Shown here: positions 28,688 through 49,489 of the stretch, piece after piece
Position numbering within the stretch: the first letter of the stretch is position 1
How the letters are laid out: each line of letters opens with the position of its first letter
NCBI GenBank assembly: GCA_963677895.2
Contig: CAXXGJ010000002.1
Span: forward strand, 32,001 to 96,000
Reading direction: 5' to 3'
Origin: Treponemataceae bacterium
GTDB taxonomy: Bacteria > Spirochaetota > Spirochaetia > Treponematales > Rectinemataceae
DNA length: 64,000 bases
The notes under the pieces: model-generated
The model's database searches: none
What the model saw: the letters and a program-made list of their open reading frames with translations, nothing else
What the model was told of the DNA's origin: nothing
Made by a program: the position numbers and the translations under genes

Positions 28688-30778
28688 ATGCTGAACCGAT
28701 TCGCCGTCCTGATCTGCGCCCTGGCCTTCTGCCTGTTGGGCGCATCCGCGCAGAACGTTGACGCGGCATTTCCCGCTGACGATACATTCAGGGTCATAGC
28801 CGACTCGATCTCCATCGGCAGGGAAAAATTTTCCGCCCGTCTCGACGAGATCCGCGCCGAAGGACGGGAGCCGCTCGGCCTCGTTCTGGCAGGCGGATCG
28901 GCGCGAGCTTACGCTCATATCGGCGTCATCCAGGTGCTTGAAGATGCCGGCATCCGGCCTGACTTCATAGTCGCCAACTCGATGGGCGCCGTGGTCGGCA
29001 TGCTTTACGCCGCCGGAGTATCCCCGGACACGATCGCCCAAATCGTAGGCGCCGTTCCCCTCGAATACTATTTCAACCTCGTCCTCCCCACGAAGGGCGG
29101 CATAATCAACGCCGATCCCTTCGTCGGCGCCGTAAAGGAAATGGTGGGCGACCTGGACCTCTCCGACACGCCGATACCCATCATCGTGACGGGCGAAGAC
29201 CTGAAGACCAGGCGTCTGGTGGAGCTGTCGGCGGGAGAGTTCTCCAAGGTCATGACGACAAGCTTCGCCATGCCGGCTATCTTCGAGCCGGTTCCCTTCG
29301 GCGAATTTCTCCTCGTCGACGGCGGATCGACCAACCTGGTGCCGGTCGAGATAGCCGCGAAGTATTCCTCTCTCCTTATCGTTTCCACAGCCTTCTACAA
29401 CAAGAGCATGAACTACGGCAATCTTCTTTCCGTGCTCAGCAGGACCTTCGATATAGGGAAGACGAGATCGGGCATCGAGGCACTGCTCGCGGTCTCGCCC
29501 ATCGTCATCAGAAATAATGTCGAAAATATTTCGTACATGCAGTTTTCCAGCCCCGCGGCCATCATCGAGCGGGGAAGGGAAAGTTCCTTGGCCTCCATCG
29601 ACGAAATCCTCGGCGTACTGCCTTCAGCGTCCAGAAACAGGCGGATGCCGCCCGAGCTCATCGAAGCCAGGACTAAGTATGATCTTTCGATTCCGCGTAC
29701 CCTCGCCCGGCTGAGGCGAGGGGCTCTGCCCGACGTTGTTCCCTCGGTGCGATACAAACTCAGATACAAGCTTTTTGACACGTTTGAGCGTTCGGCGATG
29801 GAACTGGATAGTCAGATGTACGGCGGTCTGGCGCTGTCGGCGGCGGCCGGCATGGTCAGAGCTTCGGCTTCTTCGATAATAGGGCTTTCGGGCGACCCCG
29901 GGCGGCAATGGGCGGTTACGACGAGCATGCTGGCCAATCCCTTCGATACCTTTCTCGCCCAGGCCGAGTTGAGACTTTGGGGCGATTTCAGTTCACTGCC
30001 CGCGTTTTTCCTCGAGCCCGACAGCCTCGAAATCCTGGCCGGCCTTTCCTGGTCCTCCAAGGGCGAGGGCTTCGTCCTCCGGCCGTCCCTGAGCGCCTCC
30101 CTCGATTACGCCCTCGATTCGGGGGCTCTCGGTTGGGAAACGAGGACCGACCTGGCGCTCGACGCGGGACTCGGCGACAGGCCTCTCCTCCCGGGAACCT
30201 GGGCGGGGTTTGTGTCGGCAAGAGCTGGCGCCTTTGCCGACACGCTGGCCGAGCCGGGAGGTTCTCCCCGCTATGGTCCCGAAATGACGCTTAAGACGGG
30301 CATCGCCAGGATAGGCATCGCCAGGATAGGCGGCGCCAAGCAGCCTGGCGGCGCCTATCCTGGCGGCGCCGCTTTGAGGGGAAGGGTGACGGGGCGATTC
30401 GATATGTCCGGCAGGGGGCTCTCGCTTGAGCGGGGCGACGCCTATCGGGGAAACGCCCTCGCGGGCGCGGCGCCCATCGTCATCGCCGCCAACATGGAAC
30501 TCGTCTGGCTGGCGAAATCCCTCGAGTTCGACGCGGCAGAGCTATTCCTCGTCAAGAACATGGAATTGGGTCCATATTTCGACGCCGTCTGGCTTGCCGG
30601 CGGCGGCTCCGGTTCGACCCTGAATCCCGATGCCTTCAGTTTAGGGCTCAGCTACGCCACTACCCTGAGCTTCGCCGGCCTGACACCCATCGATCTGTCG
30701 CTTTTCCTGGGCTTGGACAATACGGGATATCCGGTTTTCGGCGTCAGGGCGGGAAGGCTCTTTCCCGCCGTCAAGTGA
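28688..30778 (+). CDS. Exported patatin-like phospholipase with long beta-rich C-terminal region
   Basis: Signal peptide from ATG 28688; LAGGSAR..AHIGV, ANSMG nucleophile elbow, DGG. Confidence 0.85.
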   Translation: MLNRFAVLICALAFCLLGASAQNVDAAFPADDTFRVIADSISIGREKFSARLDEIRAEGREPLGLVLAGGSARAYAHIGVIQVLEDAGIRPDFIVANSMGAVVGMLYAAGVSPDTIAQIVGAVPLEYYFNLVLPTKGGIINADPFVGAVKEMVGDLDLSDTPIPIIVTGEDLKTRRLVELSAGEFSKVMTTSFAMPAIFEPVPFGEFLLVDGGSTNLVPVEIAAKYSSLLIVSTAFYNKSMNYGNLLSVLSRTFDIGKTRSGIEALLAVSPIVIRNNVENISYMQFSSPAAIIERGRESSLASIDEILGVLPSASRNRRMPPELIEARTKYDLSIPRTLARLRRGALPDVVPSVRYKLRYKLFDTFERSAMELDSQMYGGLALSAAAGMVRASASSIIGLSGDPGRQWAVTTSMLANPFDTFLAQAELRLWGDFSSLPAFFLEPDSLEILAGLSWSSKGEGFVLRPSLSASLDYALDSGALGWETRTDLALDAGLGDRPLLPGTWAGFVSARAGAFADTLAEPGGSPRYGPEMTLKTGIARIGIARIGGAKQPGGAYPGGAALRGRVTGRFDMSGRGLSLERGDAYRGNALAGAAPIVIAANMELVWLAKSLEFDAAELFLVKNMELGPYFDAVWLAGGGSGSTLNPDAFSLGLSYATTLSFAGLTPIDLSLFLGLDNTGYPVFGVRAGRLFPAVK
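30299..30373 (+). repeat. 15-bp-period GC-rich tandem/inverted repeat inside the patatin CDS
   Basis: GGCATCGCCAGGATA twice; 20-bp arms 30319-30338 and 30346-30365 (1 mismatch); shares an exact 18-mer with 50529-50546. Confidence 0.75.
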
Positions 30779-32540
30779 TATTCTCGTCTTCGCCGTACGC
30801 CGCGTCGTTCAGCGTCAGGGGATTTTTGAAGCGCCAGAGCAGAAGGGCGATGAAGACAAGGTTGATGACACTGGCCGCCGCGAAAAGGTTCCATTTCGGA
30901 TTGCCCGAGGCCACCGACCCCACATAGCTGTGAAGCTTCACCCCGATGGTGTAGAGCCTGTCATCGGTGAGAAAAACGAGGGGGACGAGGAAGCCGTTCC
31001 ACGCGGAGATGAAGGCCGTCATCATCGCGGCGGCCAGGGCCGGGGCGCTCAAGGGAGCGATGATCTTCAGCATGTAGGCGAGGGGCTTCATGCCCTCAAG
31101 CGCGGCTTCCTCCTCATAGCTCGGAGGCAGGCGATCCAAGAAAGCCTTCAGCGTAAAGAGTGAAAAAGGCAGGGCGTGGAAGATATACACTGTGACGAGC
31201 GGGACATAGCCGCCCAGCAAGCCCAGAAGCCTGAAGAGGATGAAGAGCGGGATGAGGGAATGGACGCCGCCCGTCATTCCTAGCGCCTGCAGAAAGGCGA
31301 AGGCCTTCGCCGAGCGCCTGGCGGTCGTCCGCGACAGGGCGAGGGCAGCCGGCAAGGTGAAGATCGGTATCAGGAGGGCGGTGGCCGCCGCGACCAGGAA
31401 GGTGTTGAAAAAATATCGCAGGATTCCCTCTTCGCGCAGAATCGTGCTGTAGGGACGAAGCGAGATGAAGCGCGGAAGGAGCCCGTCTATATAGACTGCC
31501 GACAGATCCGAGAATGAAAGCCACAGGACAACATAGATTACGAGGATGGCCGAGGCGACGGCGAAAATTCGCGCCGTCCAGCAAGCCGCTTTCCAGGCTA
31601 AGGCCGCTGCTTTGCCGCTGATGTTTGGCCGCGTCGTCCTCTCTATCCCTTCAGGCCGCTTTCTGAGATGAAACCACAGCCCAACGAGCAAAATGACAAG
31701 CATTCCCACCGCGACGGCGTATGCCGAAGGTATGCCATAGTCGTTTTCGTTCCTGAAGGCGTCATAGAGGAAAATTTCGAGCGTGGTCGTCGCCCCGACT
31801 ATATTTTTTTCGGTGATGCCGCCGACGAAGGGCGGCCCCCCGGCCGTCATCAGGAAGGGCACCTGGAATTCCTTGAACGATCTCACGAAATCGAGAGCCC
31901 ACATGACGATGAGCGTTGTACGAGCCTGCGGCGCCCTTATCCAGCGCGCGATCGTCCAGGAATCGGCTCCATCCATGCTGGCGGCTTCCGTCATGCCGCG
32001 GTTCACGGCGCGGAGCGACGCGTAGAGGGCGAACACGACAAGGGGAATGCTCAGCCATACGTCGACGGCAAGGGCGGCGATGAAGCCTGCCGCTGGATCG
32101 GTGAGAAGGTTCAGTTCCCTTCCCAGCAATGCCGAAAGCATCGACTTCCCGCCGCTGCCGTGGATGATCATCCGCCAGATGGGCACCGAGATGAAGGATG
32201 GCACTCCCCAGGGCACGAGAATGGCCGCGAATATGATCTTGAAAGATTTTTCCGCGTCCAGGAGGACGGAGGCCAGGATGAATCCTATGAGGACGGAGAG
32301 GCTGGCCGAGAGGAGGGCCCAACCCAGCGTTATGCCCAGGGAAAGAACGAATGCCCTGTCCTCGACGAGGGTTCTGAAATTGTCGAGACCCGCCCAGGCG
32401 GCCTGGCCGTAGCTGTCGTGATAGAGGGAACTGGCCGCGGCAGTGAAGAAAGGGAGTATGCCCGCGGCCAGAATGAGAAAGGCGAGAGGAAGGATGGCCC
32501 ATTTCGTCACCCTGGATCTGCCGAGAATCGACGCTTTCAT
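30771..32540 (-). CDS. Carbohydrate-type (CUT1) ABC permease, MalF-like and MalG-like domains fused
   Basis: Two EAA loops (EAASMDGA, EEAALEG), GLDNF, MTAGGP, FISAWN. Confidence 0.9.
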   Translation of the reverse strand: MKASILGRSRVTKWAILPLAFLILAAGILPFFTAAASSLYHDSYGQAAWAGLDNFRTLVEDRAFVLSLGITLGWALLSASLSVLIGFILASVLLDAEKSFKIIFAAILVPWGVPSFISVPIWRMIIHGSGGKSMLSALLGRELNLLTDPAAGFIAALAVDVWLSIPLVVFALYASLRAVNRGMTEAASMDGADSWTIARWIRAPQARTTLIVMWALDFVRSFKEFQVPFLMTAGGPPFVGGITEKNIVGATTTLEIFLYDAFRNENDYGIPSAYAVAVGMLVILLVGLWFHLRKRPEGIERTTRPNISGKAAALAWKAACWTARIFAVASAILVIYVVLWLSFSDLSAVYIDGLLPRFISLRPYSTILREEGILRYFFNTFLVAAATALLIPIFTLPAALALSRTTARRSAKAFAFLQALGMTGGVHSLIPLFILFRLLGLLGGYVPLVTVYIFHALPFSLFTLKAFLDRLPPSYEEEAALEGMKPLAYMLKIIAPLSAPALAAAMMTAFISAWNGFLVPLVFLTDDRLYTIGVKLHSYVGSVASGNPKWNLFAAASVINLVFIALLLWRFKNPLTLNDAAYGEDENIT

Positions 32541-32547
32541 CCCTTCC

Positions 32548-34035
32548 CTAGAAAACGAGATTGATCGACTGAATCTGTTTTACGTTCTTGATCCCCTCGG
32601 GCAGACGGGCGATGTTCTTGTCCCAGACGAGGACGAGGGGGAATTCGCTGGGATCGAGGCCCGCCCCATCCTTGTACATGGCGAGTATGACTTCGTCGTT
32701 GGCGTCCAGTTCGCGCGAATCGAGGGTGATCTTGTAGCCGTCGACGGCGGTCACCTCGACTTTGTAGCCGGCCTTGGCCGCCGCGCTGTCATAGGCATGG
32801 ATGCTCGTGTCCTGCTTGTGCGGCTGGTAGGCGGGATCGTCGGCGTAGCCCAGGAGGAGGTGGAGGGGGAAGCCGGTATAGCTGCCGCTTATTCCCTTGC
32901 GTTCGAAAACGACTTCCTTCTTGTGGCAGCTCACGCAGGACTGCACCGTGGCGCGATCCATCGTTCCGTTCATCTTCCCGCCGTAGGAGATGGCGAAGTC
33001 CTTGAAGTCCTTCTGTTTCACGATGATGCGCTTGATCATCTTGACCGAGGTGTGGCCGTCGATGTTGGGATCGTTGGGACCAATTTTCACCGTCCTGATG
33101 TAGCCCGGATCCTTGGGGAGCCAGTCGCCGTCCATCCTGAAGGCCAGAATCCACGTGCCGTCCGCCTCATCGAGCACTTGTTTGCCGGAATAGGTCATCT
33201 CGTAGCCGTCGGTGGCCGCGAACGTTATGGAATCGTCCGCGGAAAGGCTCATGAAACGGGAGAGGATAACCCTGAGGCCCACCCCGCCATAGACGTTGGA
33301 GTACTTTGTCCCGGCGCTGGTCGTGAAGCTTCCCTTGTTTTCCATATAGGCCGGATCTTTTTCCAGGTCGGCGAGGGTATAGGAGGTCTTCACGCCGTTG
33401 ATATCCAGCTCAAGCGCGAAAGAGGCGGCTTCCGAAACCGCCTTGGACGCTGCGAGGCTCGTGGTTATGGAGGCGATCTGCTTGACCCAAAGGTTTTTGG
33501 CCGTGTCGCCGACGATCATGGGTCTGTCGAGGGGCTTGCCGGCCTCGGTATCGGCGAGGATCAGCGCGTCCTGTGCGACATCCTTCGTGGAGAAGGTGGC
33601 GGAAAAACCGTCGGCCGCCGAGAGCGTGACTTCATAGCCTTTGGCCCAGAGTCCGGCGTCGAAGGCATAGGGATGGGAGGAGTCGGAACCGTCGATCATG
33701 GCGATGGCGAGACGGAGGGGGATGCCTGAATAGGTTGTCGCCACGCCTTTTTTATCCACAGTTTTCTGGACATAATCCTTGCCCGCGGCCTTTATCTTCT
33801 GGTAATAGGATTGAGTCAGGCTGTCCTTCCTCGCGCCCGCCAGTTCGATGCTCCAGCCGGTCTCCGCCGCCGACGCGGCCGATGTCGTGTCCGCCGCTGC
33901 CGCTGCGGCCACCGTTGTCGTCGGGACGATCTCGACGAGGGGCTTTGCCGCTTTCTGCGATTGCGATACGCATCCGGCGAGAACGAAAGCGATGGAGACC
34001 GTGATGGCGAGAATGGTCCTCATTCGTCTAGGCAT
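32548..34035 (-). CDS. Lipoprotein with three tandem sulfite-oxidase/MsrP-like (molybdopterin-binding fold) domains and a CxxCH motif
   Basis: Lipobox LAGC; three repeats of Y.G..L / A.DG(Y/F) / ILA...G..L / VK.I..I; CVSCH at 32923-32937. Confidence 0.75.
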   Translation of the reverse strand: MPRRMRTILAITVSIAFVLAGCVSQSQKAAKPLVEIVPTTTVAAAAAADTTSAASAAETGWSIELAGARKDSLTQSYYQKIKAAGKDYVQKTVDKKGVATTYSGIPLRLAIAMIDGSDSSHPYAFDAGLWAKGYEVTLSAADGFSATFSTKDVAQDALILADTEAGKPLDRPMIVGDTAKNLWVKQIASITTSLAASKAVSEAASFALELDINGVKTSYTLADLEKDPAYMENKGSFTTSAGTKYSNVYGGVGLRVILSRFMSLSADDSITFAATDGYEMTYSGKQVLDEADGTWILAFRMDGDWLPKDPGYIRTVKIGPNDPNIDGHTSVKMIKRIIVKQKDFKDFAISYGGKMNGTMDRATVQSCVSCHKKEVVFERKGISGSYTGFPLHLLLGYADDPAYQPHKQDTSIHAYDSAAAKAGYKVEVTAVDGYKITLDSRELDANDEVILAMYKDGAGLDPSEFPLVLVWDKNIARLPEGIKNVKQIQSINLVF

Positions 34036-34062
34036 GGTGTTACTCCTTTCGCATATTCATGA

Positions 34063-35598
34063 TTACGGCTTCGATCCGCCGCTTATGGTTTCCTGGTTGG
34101 CGTCGATAAGCCGGCGCGCTTCCGCGAGGGCCGCGTCCGGCTTCATGCTGCCCGCGAGTATGAATCGCAGAATTTTCCACATCGTGTTTTTATAGGTGCC
34201 GTAGCCCGAGCTGGGAGGTATGACGGCGCCAATTTCGGCGCTTCTGGTCAGGATGGCTTGATAGCGGTCGGCGCTCTCCGCTACCTTCCACGCGTCGGAA
34301 TTCGCCGGGAGTTTGGAGAGGGCTGCCGAAAAGCGATGCTGGACCCCGACGCCGGACAGGTACTCGAGCAGTCTGCGCGCAGTGACGGGGGATTGGGTGG
34401 AGCGCGTCATCGCGAAACCTTTGAAATCGAGGAGGGGCGCCATGGGTTTGCCTGTGGACGAAACCACCGGATAGGGCGCGACGCCGAAGTCCAGGCCTAT
34501 CCGTTCGAACTCGGGAATGGAATAGGACCCGCTCAGTATCATGGCGATTTTGCCCGAAGCGAAGCGCGCCACCATGGCGTCGCGTTCGAGGGGCTCCAGG
34601 TAGCCTCGGTCGATCATCGAGAGAATCCAGGATATGGCCTGTCTGGTTCCCCGATCGTCGGGACGGACTCCGCCGTCGGCATCGGCGATGGAAGGTTTTC
34701 CGAAGCCCATGGCCATGGGCAGAAGCCAATACGCGGAATAGACATTCCAGGAAATGGGCGTTCCGCCGCTCCGGCTTATCCGCGCGGCCATGGCTTCCAG
34801 ATCGTCGGTCGTCCAGGTCAGGGCGGGCGGAACGGGGACCTGTTTCCTGTCGTAGAAAACCAGCTGCGCATCGAAATAGAAGGGAATCGCCCAACGCCGG
34901 CCTTCGGCGCTGAAGGCTGCCGCCCCCTTCTCCACGATATGAGAGGCGTCGATTCGATCCAGGGGCTGGAGGGCCTGCGCCGCCACGAGATCGGGGACAT
35001 TGTCGGACTGGATCATGAGAAGATCGGGCGCGCGTCCCCCGCCGCGCTGGACGGCCAGGAGCTTGGACCTTGTATCCGGCACGTCCACGGCTCTGACCTT
35101 CGCGCCGGAAAGCGTCGCCCAACGTTGGATTTCCGCCTTGAGTTCGGGGACGCCCTCCCAGGAGAGCCAGATTTCCAGTTCCCGTTCGCGGGCCTGGTCT
35201 CCGCTGATGTTTACTGAACTGAAGGAAGCCACCCTGGCATCCGGCGCGAGCAGATCCCAGCCTCCAGAGGACGATTCGACGATATAGAATCCGGAAAGTC
35301 TGTCCGCGAGATCGTCGCCGGTCCAGATTTTGGTCCCGGCCGGGCCGGCGCACTCGATCCTCCATGCTTCCACGAGGGGAGGAAGCAGTTCGGAGACGGC
35401 AAGGCCGCGTTCGATGAAGTTTTTCGCGGGGATGGAATATGAAAGCGCGCGCAGCGCGGTATCGGAGGGCAAGGTTTTTGAGCCGCCGTTAAGGCGCAGG
35501 TCGAATGCCCAGGCCGAAGCATGAAGCGCGAAGGCGAGGCCTACGGCAAGAACAACCGTCCGGAAACAAGGTTCCGGCGGGCTTGAGCGAGTCATCAT
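34063..35598 (-). CDS. MalE-like extracellular solute-binding protein with ~100-aa N-terminal extra domain
   Basis: Signal peptide; PDLLM, LQPLD, WAIPF...FYD, F.SGKIAM, DFGVAPYP. Confidence 0.85.
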   Translation of the reverse strand: MMTRSSPPEPCFRTVVLAVGLAFALHASAWAFDLRLNGGSKTLPSDTALRALSYSIPAKNFIERGLAVSELLPPLVEAWRIECAGPAGTKIWTGDDLADRLSGFYIVESSSGGWDLLAPDARVASFSSVNISGDQARERELEIWLSWEGVPELKAEIQRWATLSGAKVRAVDVPDTRSKLLAVQRGGGRAPDLLMIQSDNVPDLVAAQALQPLDRIDASHIVEKGAAAFSAEGRRWAIPFYFDAQLVFYDRKQVPVPPALTWTTDDLEAMAARISRSGGTPISWNVYSAYWLLPMAMGFGKPSIADADGGVRPDDRGTRQAISWILSMIDRGYLEPLERDAMVARFASGKIAMILSGSYSIPEFERIGLDFGVAPYPVVSSTGKPMAPLLDFKGFAMTRSTQSPVTARRLLEYLSGVGVQHRFSAALSKLPANSDAWKVAESADRYQAILTRSAEIGAVIPPSSGYGTYKNTMWKILRFILAGSMKPDAALAEARRLIDANQETISGGSKP

Positions 35599-35722
35599 TC
35601 CCCCTTTTCAAGCATGGAAGGCTGAACCGTTTCCGGCGCAACCCGATGGCTTTTAGTCCATGGATTTCAGCGGCTCATTTCCATGATGCCGCATATCTTT
35701 AGGAACTAAGGCTCGAAGGAAT
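35598..35722 (-). ncRNA. Moco-family riboswitch, P3-less (Tuco/Wco type)
   Basis: Minus strand reads UUCGAGC..UUAGU-CCUAAA..CAUGG-ACUAA..GCC..GGGUUG-CCGGAAACGG-CAGCCU-UCCAU..GAAAAGGGGGA-AUG; it has the CCUAA/AUGG receptor, a GAAA tetraloop, and P1 pairing with the SD. Confidence 0.85.
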
Positions 35723-35732
35723 TCTATGGCTG

Positions 35733-35761
35733 ATTCTATGGCGCCCATTCGCAGGCGTCAA
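35733..35761 (-). promoter_or_regulatory. Sigma70 promoter for the riboswitch operon
   Basis: TTGACG-17-TAGAAT; predicted start near 35726, just 5' of the aptamer. Confidence 0.8.
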
Positions 35762-35802: not shown

Positions 35803-35832
35803 AAAAAAAAGGCGCCCGGGATGGGCGCCTTT
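35803..35832 (-). terminator. Rho-independent terminator
   Basis: AAAGGCGCCC-ATCC-CGGGCGCC-T8 downstream of ORF 36377-35877. Confidence 0.85.
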
Positions 35833-35876
35833 CGTATCCGATCCGAATCCGATCGGGATTCGATCGGGATCCGACG

Positions 35877-47237: not shown

Positions 47238-48014
47238 TCATTTTTTGAGATTCGCCTTCATTTCCGGCAGAAAGCGCCAGTATTTCTTGGGCATATGCCC
47301 CGACTGGACGCGCGGATTCCTGCGCTGCGCTATCGCCACGGTATCGAAGTAATGAATCCACCCCGATCTTACGGTCATTTCCCGTTCCGAAAAAGGCGGT
47401 TCATCCCCCGGCGCGAGGGAGAACCCTTCGACCATTTCCCAGGGAGCGCCTGGAGCGTAAAGAATCGCCATGCCGCGTTTCCTGTCGTGGATGGCAAACC
47501 TCATATCCGCGTAGCGGGCGGCGAAATGGTCGCCGATCAGGGGAAGGATGTCGCAGTCTGGCTCTATGGGCGCGTACCAGGAACCATCGGCCAGCTCGGA
47601 GAACCTGATCAGCCCCGTGACGAGATGGGCCTGAGCTTTCGTGCGCAAGGCGGCCTTTACCACGAAGCATATATCGGCATCGCCCATGTTTTCCAGGGCT
47701 TTTCCGCCCTCGCTGGATATTCTCGCGAGAGTTCGGGCGATGGCGTTTTCCTTATCAGGCGCGTCGGAGCAGAAGGCTTCCAGGCAGGTGCGCAGGGCCG
47801 CTTCGCCGGCTTTGCGGGAAAGGCGCCTCCAGAGCAGCGTCGCTCGCGCCTTGTCGCTTGGAACGGTTATGGTTTCGTCGAAGAGTTCCTCGATCGATGA
47901 GGGACCGCGGATGGAAGGCAGGGGGAAGCCCGAACGCGAAGCATTGATCAGCTCGGCGGCGGCGCAGAGGAAACCGGGAAAACCGCCGTCATAATTCAGG
48001 ACGACGGAGTTCAT
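47238..48014 (-). CDS. TIGR03915/DUF4130-type putative DNA repair protein
   Basis: YDGGFPGFL, H...GLIRF, EPDCDIL...HF..RY, HD..RG, MPKKYW..LPE; coupled to the radical SAM gene. Confidence 0.88.
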   Translation of the reverse strand: MNSVVLNYDGGFPGFLCAAAELINASRSGFPLPSIRGPSSIEELFDETITVPSDKARATLLWRRLSRKAGEAALRTCLEAFCSDAPDKENAIARTLARISSEGGKALENMGDADICFVVKAALRTKAQAHLVTGLIRFSELADGSWYAPIEPDCDILPLIGDHFAARYADMRFAIHDRKRGMAILYAPGAPWEMVEGFSLAPGDEPPFSEREMTVRSGWIHYFDTVAIAQRRNPRVQSGHMPKKYWRFLPEMKANLKK

Positions 48015-49489
48015 CCCGCGGCGTCCTTTATTGATTCGCTTTCCCAAGGCAGGTCGAGCTGCATGGATGGATCCTCCCTGAACGCCGGATCCAGAAGGGC
48101 GCGGCGCAGCATCTCCGGATTCTCCAGCATTCCCCCTCCCCGGTACGCGCCCTCATTGTCAGGCAACCTGCCCGACACCGTGATGAACCATTTCGCCCGC
48201 CTCATGACCACGCCCAGACGGGAGAGGGATGAAGCCTTGATGGAGGACTGTTTCCTGGCCTTCAGGATGCGCATGGCCGACTTGGGGCCGATCCCCGGCA
48301 CGCGCAGGAGTTCCTTGTAATCGGCTGTCGATAGCTCCACGGGAAAAAACTGAATGTTGCGAAGCGCCCAAGAGCTCTTGGGGTCCATGTTTTGGTCCAG
48401 GAAGGGGTGGGATGAATCCAGGATTTCCGAGGCTTCGAAACCGTAGAAGCGGAAAAGCCAGTCGGCCTGGTAAAGCCTGTGCTCTCTCGCGAGCGGGGGT
48501 CTGGCGACGACGGGAAGCCTCGGATCCGTCCCTGTCGGTATGAACGCCGAGTAATAGACCCGTCTGACATCGTAGGCCAGGTAGAGATTCTCGGCGAGGG
48601 TGAGAATGGTGGCATCGGATTCGGGGCTGGCTCCGACCACCAGCTGCGTCGTCTGCCCGGCGGGCATGAGCGGGGCCTCCGGGTTTCGCGTCCGGGTCTT
48701 CCTCGCGTCGAATACGCTGATTCCCCTCGACAGGTCGCGGTCGGCTGGCTTCAGGTCCCGAGCACTGGGTTTAATATAGGGGATGAGGGAGCTGTCGCCG
48801 GCTGGAGCTTGGGCCGAGGCCCCGACAGGGGCTCCGCCCTGCGCGGCCGCCAGGGCGGTCGGGTTTGTCGCGGACGCGATCTGCGGCGGTTCGAAGCCGC
48901 CGGCCTTCGCGAGCGCTCGCATGGGACCGAAAATCGCTTTGGGCGTCTTGTCCGGCGCTATTCTCGAAAGGCTGGCCGCGCTCGGCAGCTCTATGTTCAC
49001 CGAAACCCTGTCCGCCCATCTGGCCGCTTCGAGGACAAGCCTTTCCGAGGCGCCGGGTATCACCTTGAGATGGATATAGCCGTTGAAACGCTCCCTGGTC
49101 CTCAAGGTCCTGGCGACCCAGATCAGGCGTTCCATCGTCGCGTCCGGGCAGCCGATTACGCCCGATGAAAGAAAAGTGCCTTCAATATAGTTGCGGCGAT
49201 AGAAGTCGATGATGAGCCGGACGAGTTCCTCGGGCTCGAAAGCCGCCCGCCTGACATCGTTCGAGCGTCTGTTTACGCAATAGGCGCAATCATAGGCGCA
49301 GGCGTTGGAAAGCAGCACCTTGAGGAGGGCGACGCAGCGTCCGTCGGATGCCCAGGAGTGGCAAATGCCGCCGACGGCGCCGTTGCCCAGACCTCCCGGG
49401 GTGTTTTTTCGCCCGCTTCCCGAGGTGGAACAGGAAGCGTCATATTTGGCGGCGTCGGCCAGGACGCCGATTTTATCGTTTACGTTCAT
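48011..49489 (-). CDS. TIGR03916-type putative DNA modification/repair radical SAM protein with HhH
   Basis: AAKYDASC, GICHSW..DGRC, CAYDCAYC, REHRLYQADWL, LLRVPGIG. Confidence 0.93.
   Translation of the reverse strand: MNVNDKIGVLADAAKYDASCSTSGSGRKNTPGGLGNGAVGGICHSWASDGRCVALLKVLLSNACAYDCAYCVNRRSNDVRRAAFEPEELVRLIIDFYRRNYIEGTFLSSGVIGCPDATMERLIWVARTLRTRERFNGYIHLKVIPGASERLVLEAARWADRVSVNIELPSAASLSRIAPDKTPKAIFGPMRALAKAGGFEPPQIASATNPTALAAAQGGAPVGASAQAPAGDSSLIPYIKPSARDLKPADRDLSRGISVFDARKTRTRNPEAPLMPAGQTTQLVVGASPESDATILTLAENLYLAYDVRRVYYSAFIPTGTDPRLPVVARPPLAREHRLYQADWLFRFYGFEASEILDSSHPFLDQNMDPKSSWALRNIQFFPVELSTADYKELLRVPGIGPKSAMRILKARKQSSIKASSLSRLGVVMRRAKWFITVSGRLPDNEGAYRGGGMLENPEMLRRALLDPAFREDPSMQLDLPWESESIKDAAG

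Follow-up and report, generated by a model that had tools for sequence, protein, structure and literature searches.

A cofactor-riboswitch-controlled ABC operon of anaerobic spirochaetes as a candidate importer of the tungsten/molybdenum pyranopterin cofactor

What does an ABC transporter of the sugar-importing type carry when its synthesis is placed under a riboswitch of the molybdenum/tungsten-cofactor (Moco/Tuco) family? The question is raised by an operon within a 64,000-nucleotide stretch of spirochaete DNA (hereafter the window), in which such a riboswitch is followed by genes for a binding protein, a lipoprotein, and a fused permease, in this order (Table 1). The entire unit lies on the minus strand, and all the elements that an earlier note had picked out by inspecting the sequence are present. 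We consider it probable, at roughly 0.7, that the operon is an importer of the W/Mo-pyranopterin cofactor in its finished or nearly finished form, a reading supported by comparative and structural inference. To our knowledge, no described bacterial system imports the ready-made W/Mo pterin cofactor and no CUT1 transporter carries a pterin; nor did we find a paper in the literature describing such an operon.

Anatomy of the operon

Table 1. Features of the operon, in positions of the window.
Feature	Position	Strand	Characteristics
Secreted substrate-binding protein, 511 aa	34063..35598	(-)	Signal peptide, N-terminal domain, MalE-like cluster-B fold
Lipoprotein, 495 aa	32548..34035	(-)	Lipobox Cys22, tether, three homologous SUOX/PruR-fold domains
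Fused MalF-like + MalG-like ABC permease, 589 aa	30771..32540	(-)	Two BPD_transp_1 stretches
Moco/Tuco riboswitch aptamer RF01055, subtype without P3 stem	35585..35730	(-)	Covariance-model match
Shine-Dalgarno GGGGGA = P1 3' strand	35599..35604	(-)	Directly abuts ATG at 35598
Sigma-70-like promoter candidate TTGACG-17 nt-TAGAAT	35733..35761	(-)	10/12 matches; ends 3 nt upstream of aptamer
Intrinsic terminator of upstream 166-aa ORF	35803..35833	(-)	11-bp stem + U8

The covariance-model scan suggested in the earlier note returned a strong match to the Moco RNA motif (56.2 bits, E 9e-11; gathering score, 36), which spans the full model from position 1 to 135 with the P3 positions deleted. P3 is missing from 25 of 25 aligned orthologous copies as well. 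In this 25-sequence alignment, compensatory changes occur in 12 of the 18 predicted pairs, in P1, P4, and P5, and RNAalifold did not recover P2, which falls in a variable region. The Shine-Dalgarno sequence, described earlier as hidden by P1, does form the P1 3' strand, and a 3' strand of the GGAGGA type is conserved across the 25 copies; the element would thus act as a translational OFF switch upon closure of P1 by its ligand. We know of no direct demonstration of what P3-less riboswitches bind. Regulski et al. (2008) link P3-less Moco RNAs to users of the tungsten cofactor, and both traits of this Tuco type are found here, the P3 stem being absent and AOR-family tungsten enzymes being encoded by every host examined (see below). 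The genome's other two RF01055 copies precede cofactor-independent, NAD-type aldehyde dehydrogenases, which means that back-up regulation is present in this genome.

Upstream of the aptamer, the sigma-70 promoter was located as a site, but such sites number 1 in 6 kb at this match level, where shuffled sequence averages 2.0; the count is thus not above chance, and the position alone is suggestive. The terminator claimed to insulate the unit from its upstream neighbor was found, between the 166-aa ORF and the operon, as a hairpin (35833..35807) with a U-tract (-21.6 kcal/mol, z -2.83), although the pattern scanner did not list it.

Profile searches bear out the MalE-like binding protein and the fused MalF/MalG-like permease. 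The former matches SBP_bac_8 at 5.7e-21 and the latter two stretches of BPD_transp_1, which together give the CUT1 composition of a cluster-B binding protein plus two such membrane domains. In the binding protein (AF2 model, pLDDT 92), the cluster-B fold occupies residues 135-505, of which 135-497 align as MalE-like, and is preceded, after the signal peptide, by a conserved beta-rich domain (about residues 33-135) whose similarity to the lipoprotein domains was not significant. Its matches are confined to SBP_bac_8/1 and MalE/GanS models; neither PBP_like_2 nor SBP_bac_11 was matched in the profile searches, and a fold of the ModA/TupA/WtpA type was accordingly not found. Within the permease, residues 43-286 are MalF-like and residues 372-567 MalG-like, with further, weak matches to ModB and CysT models. 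The three-gene unit contains no ATPase gene. A MalK-type ATPase gene lies divergently upstream in 2 of the 17 loci with scanned flanks, and the window's genome encodes, at an unlinked site (G000:C21:119904-121019), a UgpC/MalK-type protein that is a 75%-identical orthologue of this locus-adjacent ATPase and would be the operon's partner.

The lipoprotein had been credited with three sulfite-oxidase-like domains, and structure and profile comparison does resolve three homologous ones. Behind the lipobox (LAGC) and a disordered, Ala/Thr-rich tether (residues 23-58) follow D1 (about 61-196), D2 (200-345), and D3 (346-495), with the homology of D1 to D3 given by hhalign at a probability of 99.2% (E 1.7e-19). 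Pfam recognizes a single PF00174 stretch (residues 234-346, 9.9e-12), i.e., the Moco-binding fold of the SUOX family. In structure comparisons, D2 matches both chicken sulfite oxidase (3hbg, Z 15.6) and PruR (7kp2, Z 15.4, rmsd 2.7 A over 133 aligned residues), D3 matches the PruR-neopterin complex (7rkb, Z 14.7), and D1 alone reaches a Z of about 6 at best, against beta-grasp folds. A long beta-hairpin is kept in D2 (strands 230-238 and 244-253). The cysteines of the protein are C22 of the lipobox plus C367 and C370, both within D3. In SUOX enzymes a conserved cysteine is reported to coordinate Mo (PMC11194511), and D1 and D2 have no cysteine that could take this role. The export signal is Sec-type, with no twin-arginine conserved among 26 homologues, and the cytoplasmic cofactor loading of the SUOX family (as a cytoplasmic enzyme or through Tat export) finds no counterpart in this protein. 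The lack of cysteines in D1 and D2 and of a conserved twin-arginine is as expected of a binder loaded extracellularly rather than of a Tat-exported enzyme. SUOX-like domains also occur as repeats in giant surface proteins, together with PKD, Big_2, and NosD domains; the fold by itself is therefore no proof of pterin binding.

A predicted complex supports docking of the lipoprotein onto the binding protein: ipSAE was 0.78 in three runs while the best of 3 controls reached 0.00, the partner pLDDT was 86, at least 80% of contacts were shared between runs, and the modeled interface draws on invariant residues from each partner. Of 157 solved complexes, 116 attain this mark, as do 2 of 215 mismatched pairs, counts that hold only roughly because our own alignments were used.

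Distribution and gene content of the carriers

The three-gene unit was found in 57 species genomes, from Spirochaetota plus three Thermotogota. Whether the riboswitch is conserved at homologous operons, a question posed earlier, is answered by 46 of the 49 related loci scanned, in which RF01055 scores at or above the gathering threshold directly upstream of the binding-protein gene; one locus (L059) is without it even at E <= 0.1. Glycosidase neighborhoods, named beforehand as grounds for rejecting the proposal, were not seen. The flanks of 17 loci (60 proteins) hold no conserved neighbor gene, and the glycoside hydrolases and sugar kinases expected beside a CUT1 system are represented by a single GH3 and a single FGGY kinase that do not recur across loci. 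No GGDEF-EAL gene adjoins the operon in the window; at locus L036 only, an unrelated gene of this kind lies 3.6 kb downstream.

The window's genome is 92.76% complete, and each search for biosynthesis genes was run with positive controls. Profile searches gave no match in it to MoaC, MoaE, the MoaA C-terminal domain, MoeA_N, or MoCF_biosynth, which answers for the operon's own host the earlier question of whether moaA/moaC/moaE are lacking and adds MoeA and MogA to the missing proteins. The sole PBP_like_2 protein was identified as PstS and the seven of SBP_bac_11 as PhnS2-, ThiB-, or PotD-like; by these identities, no TupA, ModA, or WtpA is recognized in the genome. It encodes three AOR-family tungsten enzymes, one DMSO-reductase-family protein (699 aa), and a MobA-like protein (77.5 bits, below cut-offs). 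The latter is retained by 14 of the 16 operon-carrying family genomes without biosynthesis, so that late-step tailoring may persist.

Across the carriers, the picture expected by the earlier note, of hosts with tungsten enzymes and mostly without Moco biosynthesis, holds. AOR is present in 50 of 50 carrier genomes, MoaC in 16, and MoeA_N over its cut-off in 15; neither MoaC nor MoeA was found in 33, all three Thermotogota carriers included, such absences being read from MAGs at 70-99% completeness. MoaC or MoeA is present in the other 17, both closed chromosomes among them; auxotrophs are therefore not the only hosts of the system. Within the window's own GTDB family (69 genomes, including G479, which was scored by additional searches), the operon occurs in 16 of the 17 AOR-positive genomes without MoaC or MoeA, in 3 of the 28 AOR-positive genomes with biosynthesis, and in 0 of the 24 AOR-negative ones; related genomes are not independent, and this set overlaps with the 50 carriers (e.g., G001 and G499). 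A genome of the same genus (G500, 8 contigs, 97% complete) combines the operon and 6 AOR hits with no match to MoaC or MoeA. Another family genome (G517, 88% complete) has AOR but no MoaC, MoeA, or operon, and carries a tupA-like gene under riboswitch control. In the phylum at large, the lipoprotein was found in 0 of 400 sampled genomes. AOR is present in 105 of these operon-free genomes, 94 of which have MoaC (cross-tabulated by hand); MoaC is missing from the other 11, three of them 98-99% complete, and the operon is therefore not the sole answer.

Proposed mechanism and competing explanations

At low cytoplasmic cofactor levels, the P3-less riboswitch would leave its P1 open and the Shine-Dalgarno sequence free, so that the three operon proteins would be made. 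The lipoprotein would leave the cytoplasm through Sec, unfolded and hence free of cofactor, and become tethered to the membrane, where its SUOX/PruR-type pterin pockets could capture and shield the oxygen-labile cofactor shed by neighboring cells. It may then dock on the MalE-like binding protein and pass the cargo on for translocation by the fused MalF/MalG permease, powered by the unlinked MalK/UgpC-type ATPase. AOR-family enzymes would be loaded with the imported cofactor, and a full cofactor pool would close P1 and stop translation. The cargo would be the tungsten cofactor first, possibly Moco or metal-free molybdopterin too. On balance, we favor the view that this is the first identified prokaryotic importer of the finished W/Mo pyranopterin cofactor, one that lets anaerobic spirochaete clades and some Thermotogota drop all of moa/moe, and that the triple pterin-pocket lipoprotein serves as an extracytoplasmic chaperone that hands this labile molecule on to a MalE-derived binding protein.

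What else could such an operon import? The MalEFG-like nature of the binding protein and permease would suit another nutrient, be it a sugar-like, sulfur, or organic compound, with the lipoprotein as an accessory binder or redox protein and the riboswitch serving solely to turn on a cofactor-independent back-up pathway in times of cofactor shortage. The same logic would govern the two riboswitch-controlled aldehyde dehydrogenases, and SUOX-like repeats recur in many large surface proteins. We nevertheless regard this explanation as unlikely, as it accounts neither for the operon's tracking of biosynthesis loss (16/17 vs. 3/28 vs. 0/24 in the family) nor for the cofactor source of hosts that have 1-11 AOR genes and no moa/moe, and a conserved catabolic or glycosidase partner was not seen beside the operon.

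It is also quite improbable that a simpler pterin, or one from an earlier step (cPMP, metal-free molybdopterin, or a small pterin, e.g., neopterin or monapterin), is imported and finished by unidentified host enzymes, even though the MobA-like protein is retained as described above and PruR, which is the nearest single-domain relative with a solved structure, is reported to bind small pterins and not Moco. We know of no route from small pterins to molybdopterin; to be of use, cPMP requires MoaD/MoaE, and metal-free MPT depends on MogA/MoeA together with an oxyanion importer, of which neither MoaE, MogA, and MoeA nor such an importer was found in the 92.8%-complete genome of the window. The long hairpin of D2, moreover, contrasts with PruR, whose hairpin is described as truncated. 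An unusual tungstate/molybdate importer, whose lipoprotein would concentrate the oxyanion, is very improbable: mod/tup genes are reported as common targets of Moco-type riboswitches, a riboswitch-preceded TupA-like gene exists in the same family, and the permease has its weak ModB and CysT scores, but an oxyanion would be of no use to carriers without both MoaC and MoeA (33 of 50), the binding protein resembles MalE and lies outside both oxyanion-type families searched (PBP_like_2 and SBP_bac_11), and the lipoprotein has a pterin-pocket fold.

Implications and comparison with known systems

In the textbook view, Moco and Wco are too unstable for exchange, and each cell that depends on them makes its own. 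Comparative surveys (Peng et al., 2018) found "orphan" molybdoenzymes in hundreds of bacteria that lack biosynthesis, a pattern they left unexplained; a dedicated importer, if true, would explain such genomes. Moco and Wco would then join the cross-fed cofactors that structure anaerobic communities, with spirochaete clades and some Thermotogota living as cofactor auxotrophs on material released by their neighbors, and the P3-less riboswitch class would gain a clear physiological context. Proteins that stabilize and carry the cofactor could find practical use in producing, assaying, or delivering Moco, and the three clonable genes make the hypothesis directly testable.

In cobalamin salvage, the BtuFCD ABC importer is under riboswitch control, and lipoproteins such as BtuG capture B12 in Bacteroides. 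The present operon would likewise combine a cofactor-sensing riboswitch that shuts off a finished-cofactor importer with an additional extracytoplasmic lipoprotein for capture of the putative cargo, and it likewise occurs in both auxotrophs and producers. Unlike type II BtuCD, its permease is a type I, CUT1-like MalFG and the binding proteins are unrelated; unlike cobalamin, the putative cargo is an oxygen-labile metal-dithiolene pterin for which we know of no described bacterial importer. With MalEFGK2 and other CUT1 systems it shares the SBP_bac_1/8 binding protein, the MalF-like and MalG-like domains, and presumably a MalK/UgpC-type ATPase encoded elsewhere, but its scores fall well short of all equivalog cut-offs (MalE, 66.9 bits vs. 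291), its permease halves are fused, its binding protein has an extra N-terminal domain, and it combines control by a cofactor riboswitch with a lack of sugar-catabolic neighbors. ModABC, TupABC, and WtpABC under Moco riboswitches have the same RNA family and the same goal of supplying Mo/W enzymes, yet they use other binding-protein families and depend on a complete biosynthetic pathway, missing from most genomes that carry the present operon.

PruR is described as a minimal SUOX fold that is secreted, has no catalytic role, and lacks the Mo-ligand cysteine (PDB 7kp2, 7kom, 7kos, 7rkb; PMC11194511), a single domain that signals to the GGDEF-EAL protein DcpA and binds small pterins (PMC11194511). 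Characteristic of the PruR type are a Tyr/Trp sandwich and an Asn in contact with the pterin ring. The lipoprotein resembles it as a secreted SUOX fold with no cysteine in D1 or D2, and D2 and D3 superpose on it at Z 14.1-15.4; it differs in fusing three domains on a lipid anchor, within a riboswitch-controlled ABC operon and without a DcpA partner. Finally, Caenorhabditis elegans is reported to take up protein-bound Moco from its diet (PMC7849362, PMC9793310); we know of no transporter described for this uptake. There, as proposed here, ready-made Moco is acquired from other organisms; unlike in this animal, a specific prokaryotic candidate machine has now been identified.

An insulated, riboswitch-led operon

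Profile matches place within the operon both the MalE-like binding protein and the fused MalF/MalG-like permease that an earlier note had read from the sequence. The binding protein (511 aa, secreted; SBP_bac_8, 5.7e-21) is MalE-like over residues 135–497, with scores far under the equivalog cut-offs, the lipoprotein (495 aa) has a single PF00174 match, and the permease (589 aa) joins a MalF-like to a MalG-like half. The operon contains no ATPase gene; the motor of the importer is likely an unlinked UgpC/MalK-type ATPase, which is 75% identical to the ATPase adjoining the operon at another locus (L025). A metNIQ-type methionine transporter flanks the operon divergently, and a patatin-like protein convergently. 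Elsewhere in the window lies a radical-SAM protein pair unrelated to the operon (see the table).

The Moco RNA motif, RF01055, is the sole Rfam family that cmscan finds in the 64-kb window, and it scores above the gathering score, as expected of the Moco-family aptamer that had been proposed. In the cmscan alignment, the P3 hairpin positions of the model are deleted. Since the 3′ strand of P1 is the GGGGGA stretch just before the start codon, a closed P1 would bury the Shine–Dalgarno sequence, in keeping with the suggestion that P1 hides it. Among 25 aligned orthologous riboswitches, P3 is absent from all 25, the 3′ P1 strands are of GGAGGA type and lie a few bases 5′ of the start codon, and compensatory changes occur in 12 of 18 predicted pairs. 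The sigma70 promoter fared less evenly: a candidate does sit immediately before the aptamer, but the 6-kb region holds one such site against a mean of 2.0 in shuffles, so that position is all that favours it. A GC-rich hairpin with a U tract agrees with the proposal that a terminator insulates the unit from the upstream gene, here a 166-aa ORF for which Pfam offers nothing, even with the limit relaxed to E ≤ 1; the terminator pattern scan did not list this hairpin and returned three other weak sites, below the shuffle count.

Coordinates of the features discussed (G000, the window's own genome; C, contig; L, individual locus)
Feature	Location	Strand	Remarks
RF01055 riboswitch	window 35730..35585	minus	56.2 bits against a gathering score of 36; E 9e-11; full model (cmscan)
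P1 3′ strand GGGGGA	window 35604..35599	minus	directly abuts ATG at 35598
Promoter-like TTGACG-17-TAGAAT	3 nt upstream of aptamer	minus	pattern scan
Hairpin, 11 bp, GC-rich, with U8	ending the preceding 166-aa ORF	minus	-21.6 kcal/mol
Radical-SAM/helix-hairpin-helix protein adjoining DUF4130 protein	window 47238-49489	minus	
Second RF01055 copy of the genome	G000:C37:2972-3109 (L004)	plus	39.4 bits; before NAD-type aldehyde dehydrogenase
Third RF01055 copy of the genome	G000:C18:174615-174752 (L005 10616-10753)	minus	36.4 bits; before NAD-type aldehyde dehydrogenase
Second RF01055 of a Salinispira-like carrier MAG	L054 11213-11330	minus	64.2 bits; before AOR-family gene, then ThiF/MoeB-like gene
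Cobalamin riboswitch	L056 17056-17249	plus	
Cobalamin riboswitch	L056 20184-20383	minus	

The lipoprotein family yields 152 matches in a 90%-clustered database, the named ones being spirochaete proteins annotated 'molybdopterin-dependent oxidoreductase', and a one-genome-per-species scan recovers 57 loci from Spirochaetota MAGs and three Thermotogota MAGs. The order binding protein–lipoprotein–permease is kept wherever the contig extends far enough, with the permease in 56 of the 57 loci and the binding protein in 52 (the five misses begin within about 400 nt of a contig end). The riboswitch is conserved with the operon: setting aside eight loci that contain no upstream DNA, Rfam scanning shows, in 46/49, an RF01055 match that reaches the gathering score and adjoins the binding-protein gene on its 5′ side. 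A contig-truncated copy at L053 reaches 32.2 bits, L026 starts 70 nt before the gene, and L059, the most divergent locus, has no RF01055 even at E ≤ 0.1. The flanks of 17 loci (60 proteins) hold no conserved neighbour; a divergent MalK-type ATPase occurs at two of these loci, and glycosidase company amounts to one GH3 protein among the 60. The operon is a self-contained module rather than a sugar-utilisation locus. At one locus, L056, two cobalamin riboswitches lie less than 12 kb from the importer operon.

Cofactor genes of the hosts

The window's genome (3.5 Mb, 39 contigs, 92.76% complete, 5.46% contamination) has no match to MoaC, MoaE, the MoaA C-terminal domain, MoeA_N or MoCF_biosynth, for which control genomes were positive as expected. 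Nor were TupA, ModA or WtpA recognised among its PBP_like_2 and SBP_bac_11 proteins: the sole PBP_like_2 protein is PstS, and the seven SBP_bac_11 proteins are PhnS2-, ThiB- or PotD-like. The same genome encodes three tungsten enzymes of the aldehyde oxidoreductase (AOR) family, a 699-aa DMSO-reductase-family protein and a 229-aa MobA-like protein (77.5 bits, under the cut-offs). As an auxotroph marker the MobA-like protein does not discriminate, being kept in auxotrophs and, at about 33% identity, also found in AOR-negative genomes.

A census of 50 of the 57 carrier genomes, with seven short loci left out, finds AOR in all 50, which bears out the view that the hosts have W/Mo enzymes. That they also lack cofactor biosynthesis holds for the window's genome and for the 33 of 50 with neither MoaC nor MoeA_N over the cut-off, among which are its 16 nearest relatives and all three Thermotogota, but not throughout: MoaC is present in 16 of 50, among them both closed chromosomes, and MoeA_N over the cut-off in 15.

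Within the window's GTDB family, the 69 genomes (the window's own included) were sorted by AOR and by biosynthesis, taken as the presence of MoaC or MoeA. The lipoprotein occurs in 18 of them, and a 19th carrier, G479, is added by a 5.2-kb contig with the riboswitch and a binding-protein gene of 52% identity, immediately after which the contig stops. The operon is present in 16 of the 17 AOR-positive genomes without biosynthesis, in 3 of the 28 AOR-positive genomes with it, and in none of the 24 AOR-negative genomes; as these genomes are related and overlap with the 50 carriers, the counts describe a pattern and not a statistic. The link between operon and missing biosynthesis is seen in at least six genera and in a second phylum. 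The sole exception among the 17, G517 (88% complete), has the riboswitch before a TupA-like gene and probably makes its own cofactor. Two further family genomes, G467 and G474, are without MoaC but carry a riboswitch-linked moeA on fragmented contigs.

Against the background of a 400-genome sample of the phylum, in which the lipoprotein was found in none, AOR and MoaC were cross-tabulated by hand: 105 genomes are AOR-positive, and 94 of these have MoaC. Three of the 11 AOR-positive genomes without it are 98–99% complete, so that other routes must exist. In this sample G421, G424 and G427, from one spirochaete family (1.5–2.9 Mb, 98–99% complete), have an AOR-like match with neither MoaC nor operon; they may use a different salvage route or have an AOR relative that needs no cofactor.

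The lipoprotein and its modelled partner

The signal peptide of the lipoprotein ends in LAGC, with Cys22 followed by a low-confidence Ala/Thr/Ser tether (residues 23–58). Visual inspection of 26 aligned homologues gives about 15 with a lipobox-type Cys here and the remainder with plain signal peptides; a loose lipobox pattern matched 17 of the 26, two of them doubtfully. Because no twin-arginine is conserved among the aligned homologues, the protein is probably exported unfolded and free of cofactor. The AF2 model (pLDDT 82.5) has three beta-rich domains, D1 to D3 from the N-terminus, and the top Foldseek ranks are taken by the Moco domains of sulfite oxidase, SorA and SoxC and by the single-domain, pterin-binding PruR. 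In VIA-align, D2 (residues 201–342) superposes on PruR 7kp2 (Z 15.4, rmsd 2.7 Å over 133 residues) and on chicken sulfite oxidase (Z 15.6), and D3 (residues 347–494) on the PruR–neopterin complex 7rkb (Z 14.7, rmsd 2.3 Å over 121), while D1 reaches a top Z of only about 6, against beta-grasp folds. When profiles of the individual sliced domains are compared, D1 proves homologous to D3 (probability 99.2%, E 1.7e-19), with 94.3% for D2 against D3 and 67.8% for D1 against D2. The three sulfite-oxidase-like domains of the earlier note thus hold by transitive homology, through structure for D2 and D3 and through D3 for D1; searching PDB chains by sequence with the lipoprotein profile brought up marginal matches only (E ≥ 0.055).

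According to PMC11194511, the conserved Cys through which SUOX enzymes bind Mo lies where a long beta-hairpin has its tip, and PruR has a truncated hairpin with Trp in place of that Cys. Unlike that of PruR, the hairpin of D2 is long in the AF2 model (strands 230–238 and 244–253), with a tip, TTSAGT, invariant among aligned homologues; its equivalence to the SUOX hairpin is a lead for testing, since by sequence D2 aligns with sulfite oxidase in the C-terminal motif alone (E about 1.2) and the tip cannot be placed on the Mo-ligand loop. The only Cys residues of the mature protein are 367 and 370, both within D3. A c-type cytochrome motif there (CxxCH, residues 367–371) was considered and dropped, its first Cys being unconserved and Gly in several homologues. 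The wider family of lipoprotein domains comprises 682 representative clusters at E ≤ 0.001. Distant relatives of these domains recur 3–9 times in giant proteins of 1,100–3,100 aa (P0134, P0140, P0148, P0166, P0168, P0176, P0178 and P0190), which also carry PKD, Big_2, NosD/beta-helix, CBM96 and Shr-like heme-binding domains; they form a class of surface proteins, so far uncharacterised, whose building blocks are degenerate SUOX-fold modules.

The binding protein, modelled with pLDDT 92 and pTM 0.87, has a conserved beta-rich N-terminal domain (residues 33–135) before its MalE-like body. An Atlas feature search likens this domain to those of the lipoprotein (0.78, a lead only); hhalign gave no significance either for the binding protein against the lipoprotein family (probability 0.28%, E 0.21) or for the sliced N-domain against D2 (6.6%), and a fourth SUOX-like domain is not established. 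Modelled together, the binding protein (32–511) and the lipoprotein (60–495) reach an ipSAE of 0.78 in three of three runs (best of three controls, 0.00), with a partner pLDDT of 86 and at least 80% contact agreement between runs; for comparison, 116 out of 157 solved complexes attain this mark, as do 2 out of 215 mismatched pairs, and these counts are only rough because self-made alignments were used. The predicted interface joins the D1 DGF strand region (135–149), residues 179–181 and 197–203 and the D2 loop 304–309 of the lipoprotein to residues 76–79, 132–138, 178–186, 206–215 and 399–405 of the binding protein, and a number of these positions do not vary within the two families. No comparable solved complex is known to us, and binding between the two proteins is supported by the model rather than shown.

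What the operon would import

The most economical reading is that the operon imports the pyranopterin cofactor itself, with its expression governed by a cofactor-sensing OFF switch. Every available computational test supports this interpretation, which the earlier note had put forward; the function itself is inferred. An importer of oxyanions would be useless to hosts without molybdopterin synthesis. Were the cargo cPMP or metal-free MPT, the host would have to possess MoaD/E or MogA/MoeA together with an oxyanion importer, none of which was found in the window's genome, and small pterins, to our knowledge, are not convertible to MPT.

The main rival is that the operon serves as a back-up pathway, switched on by cofactor shortage, for some other nutrient. 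In its favour, the genome's two other RF01055 copies precede NAD-type aldehyde dehydrogenases (best match TIGR01236, L-glutamate gamma-semialdehyde dehydrogenase, 778 bits against a cut-off of 613), an arrangement also seen in G467 and G474. These loci look like a cofactor-sparing switch of isoenzymes, between a W-dependent AOR and a cofactor-free dehydrogenase, and may be likened to the B12 riboswitch before metE. Such a back-up role leaves the operon's link with biosynthesis loss unexplained. The two dehydrogenase loci (L004, a whole 10.4-kb contig, and L005, G000:C18:164000-178000) share the order response regulator, histidine kinase, riboswitch, dehydrogenase, TAXI-TRAP transporter and TPP enzyme, and are 91–92% identical in DNA over the whole contig; either they arose by recent duplication or the MAG (contamination 5.46%) includes a second strain. 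In a Salinispira-like carrier, a second RF01055 stands before an AOR-family gene, so the same RNA family controls a cofactor-using enzyme too.

For the cofactor importer, the tungsten form of the cargo is indicated by the lack of P3 in the aptamer and by AOR occurring in every carrier examined, and the DMSO-reductase-family enzyme and the MobA-like protein would allow Mo-MPT too. Regulski et al. (2008; PMC2408646) defined the P3-less class, tied it to tungsten-cofactor use and placed two such RNAs in S. wolfei before 'putative sulphite oxidase' genes, which may be relatives of the lipoprotein. All importer-linked riboswitches are without P3, unlike two copies from the same bacterial family that have a long insertion at the P3 position, one before a moeA-containing operon (L063, G467:C26) and one before the TupA-like gene (L065, G517:C198); the latter, a P3-type copy in front of a tungstate transporter, runs against any straightforward equation of P3 with Moco.

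In the count of Peng et al. (2018; PMC6147048), 305 bacteria had molybdoenzymes but no complete Moco pathway, and the authors considered incomplete genomes or metal-independent forms, uptake being undiscussed in the main text portions covered. Outside the supplements of PMC2408646 and PMC6147048, which might list these genes, the literature searched held nothing relevant on a bacterial Moco or Wco importer. The closest parallel is riboswitch-controlled B12 salvage, which would work alike, but the operon is made up of a CUT1-type transporter and a PruR/SUOX-fold lipoprotein.
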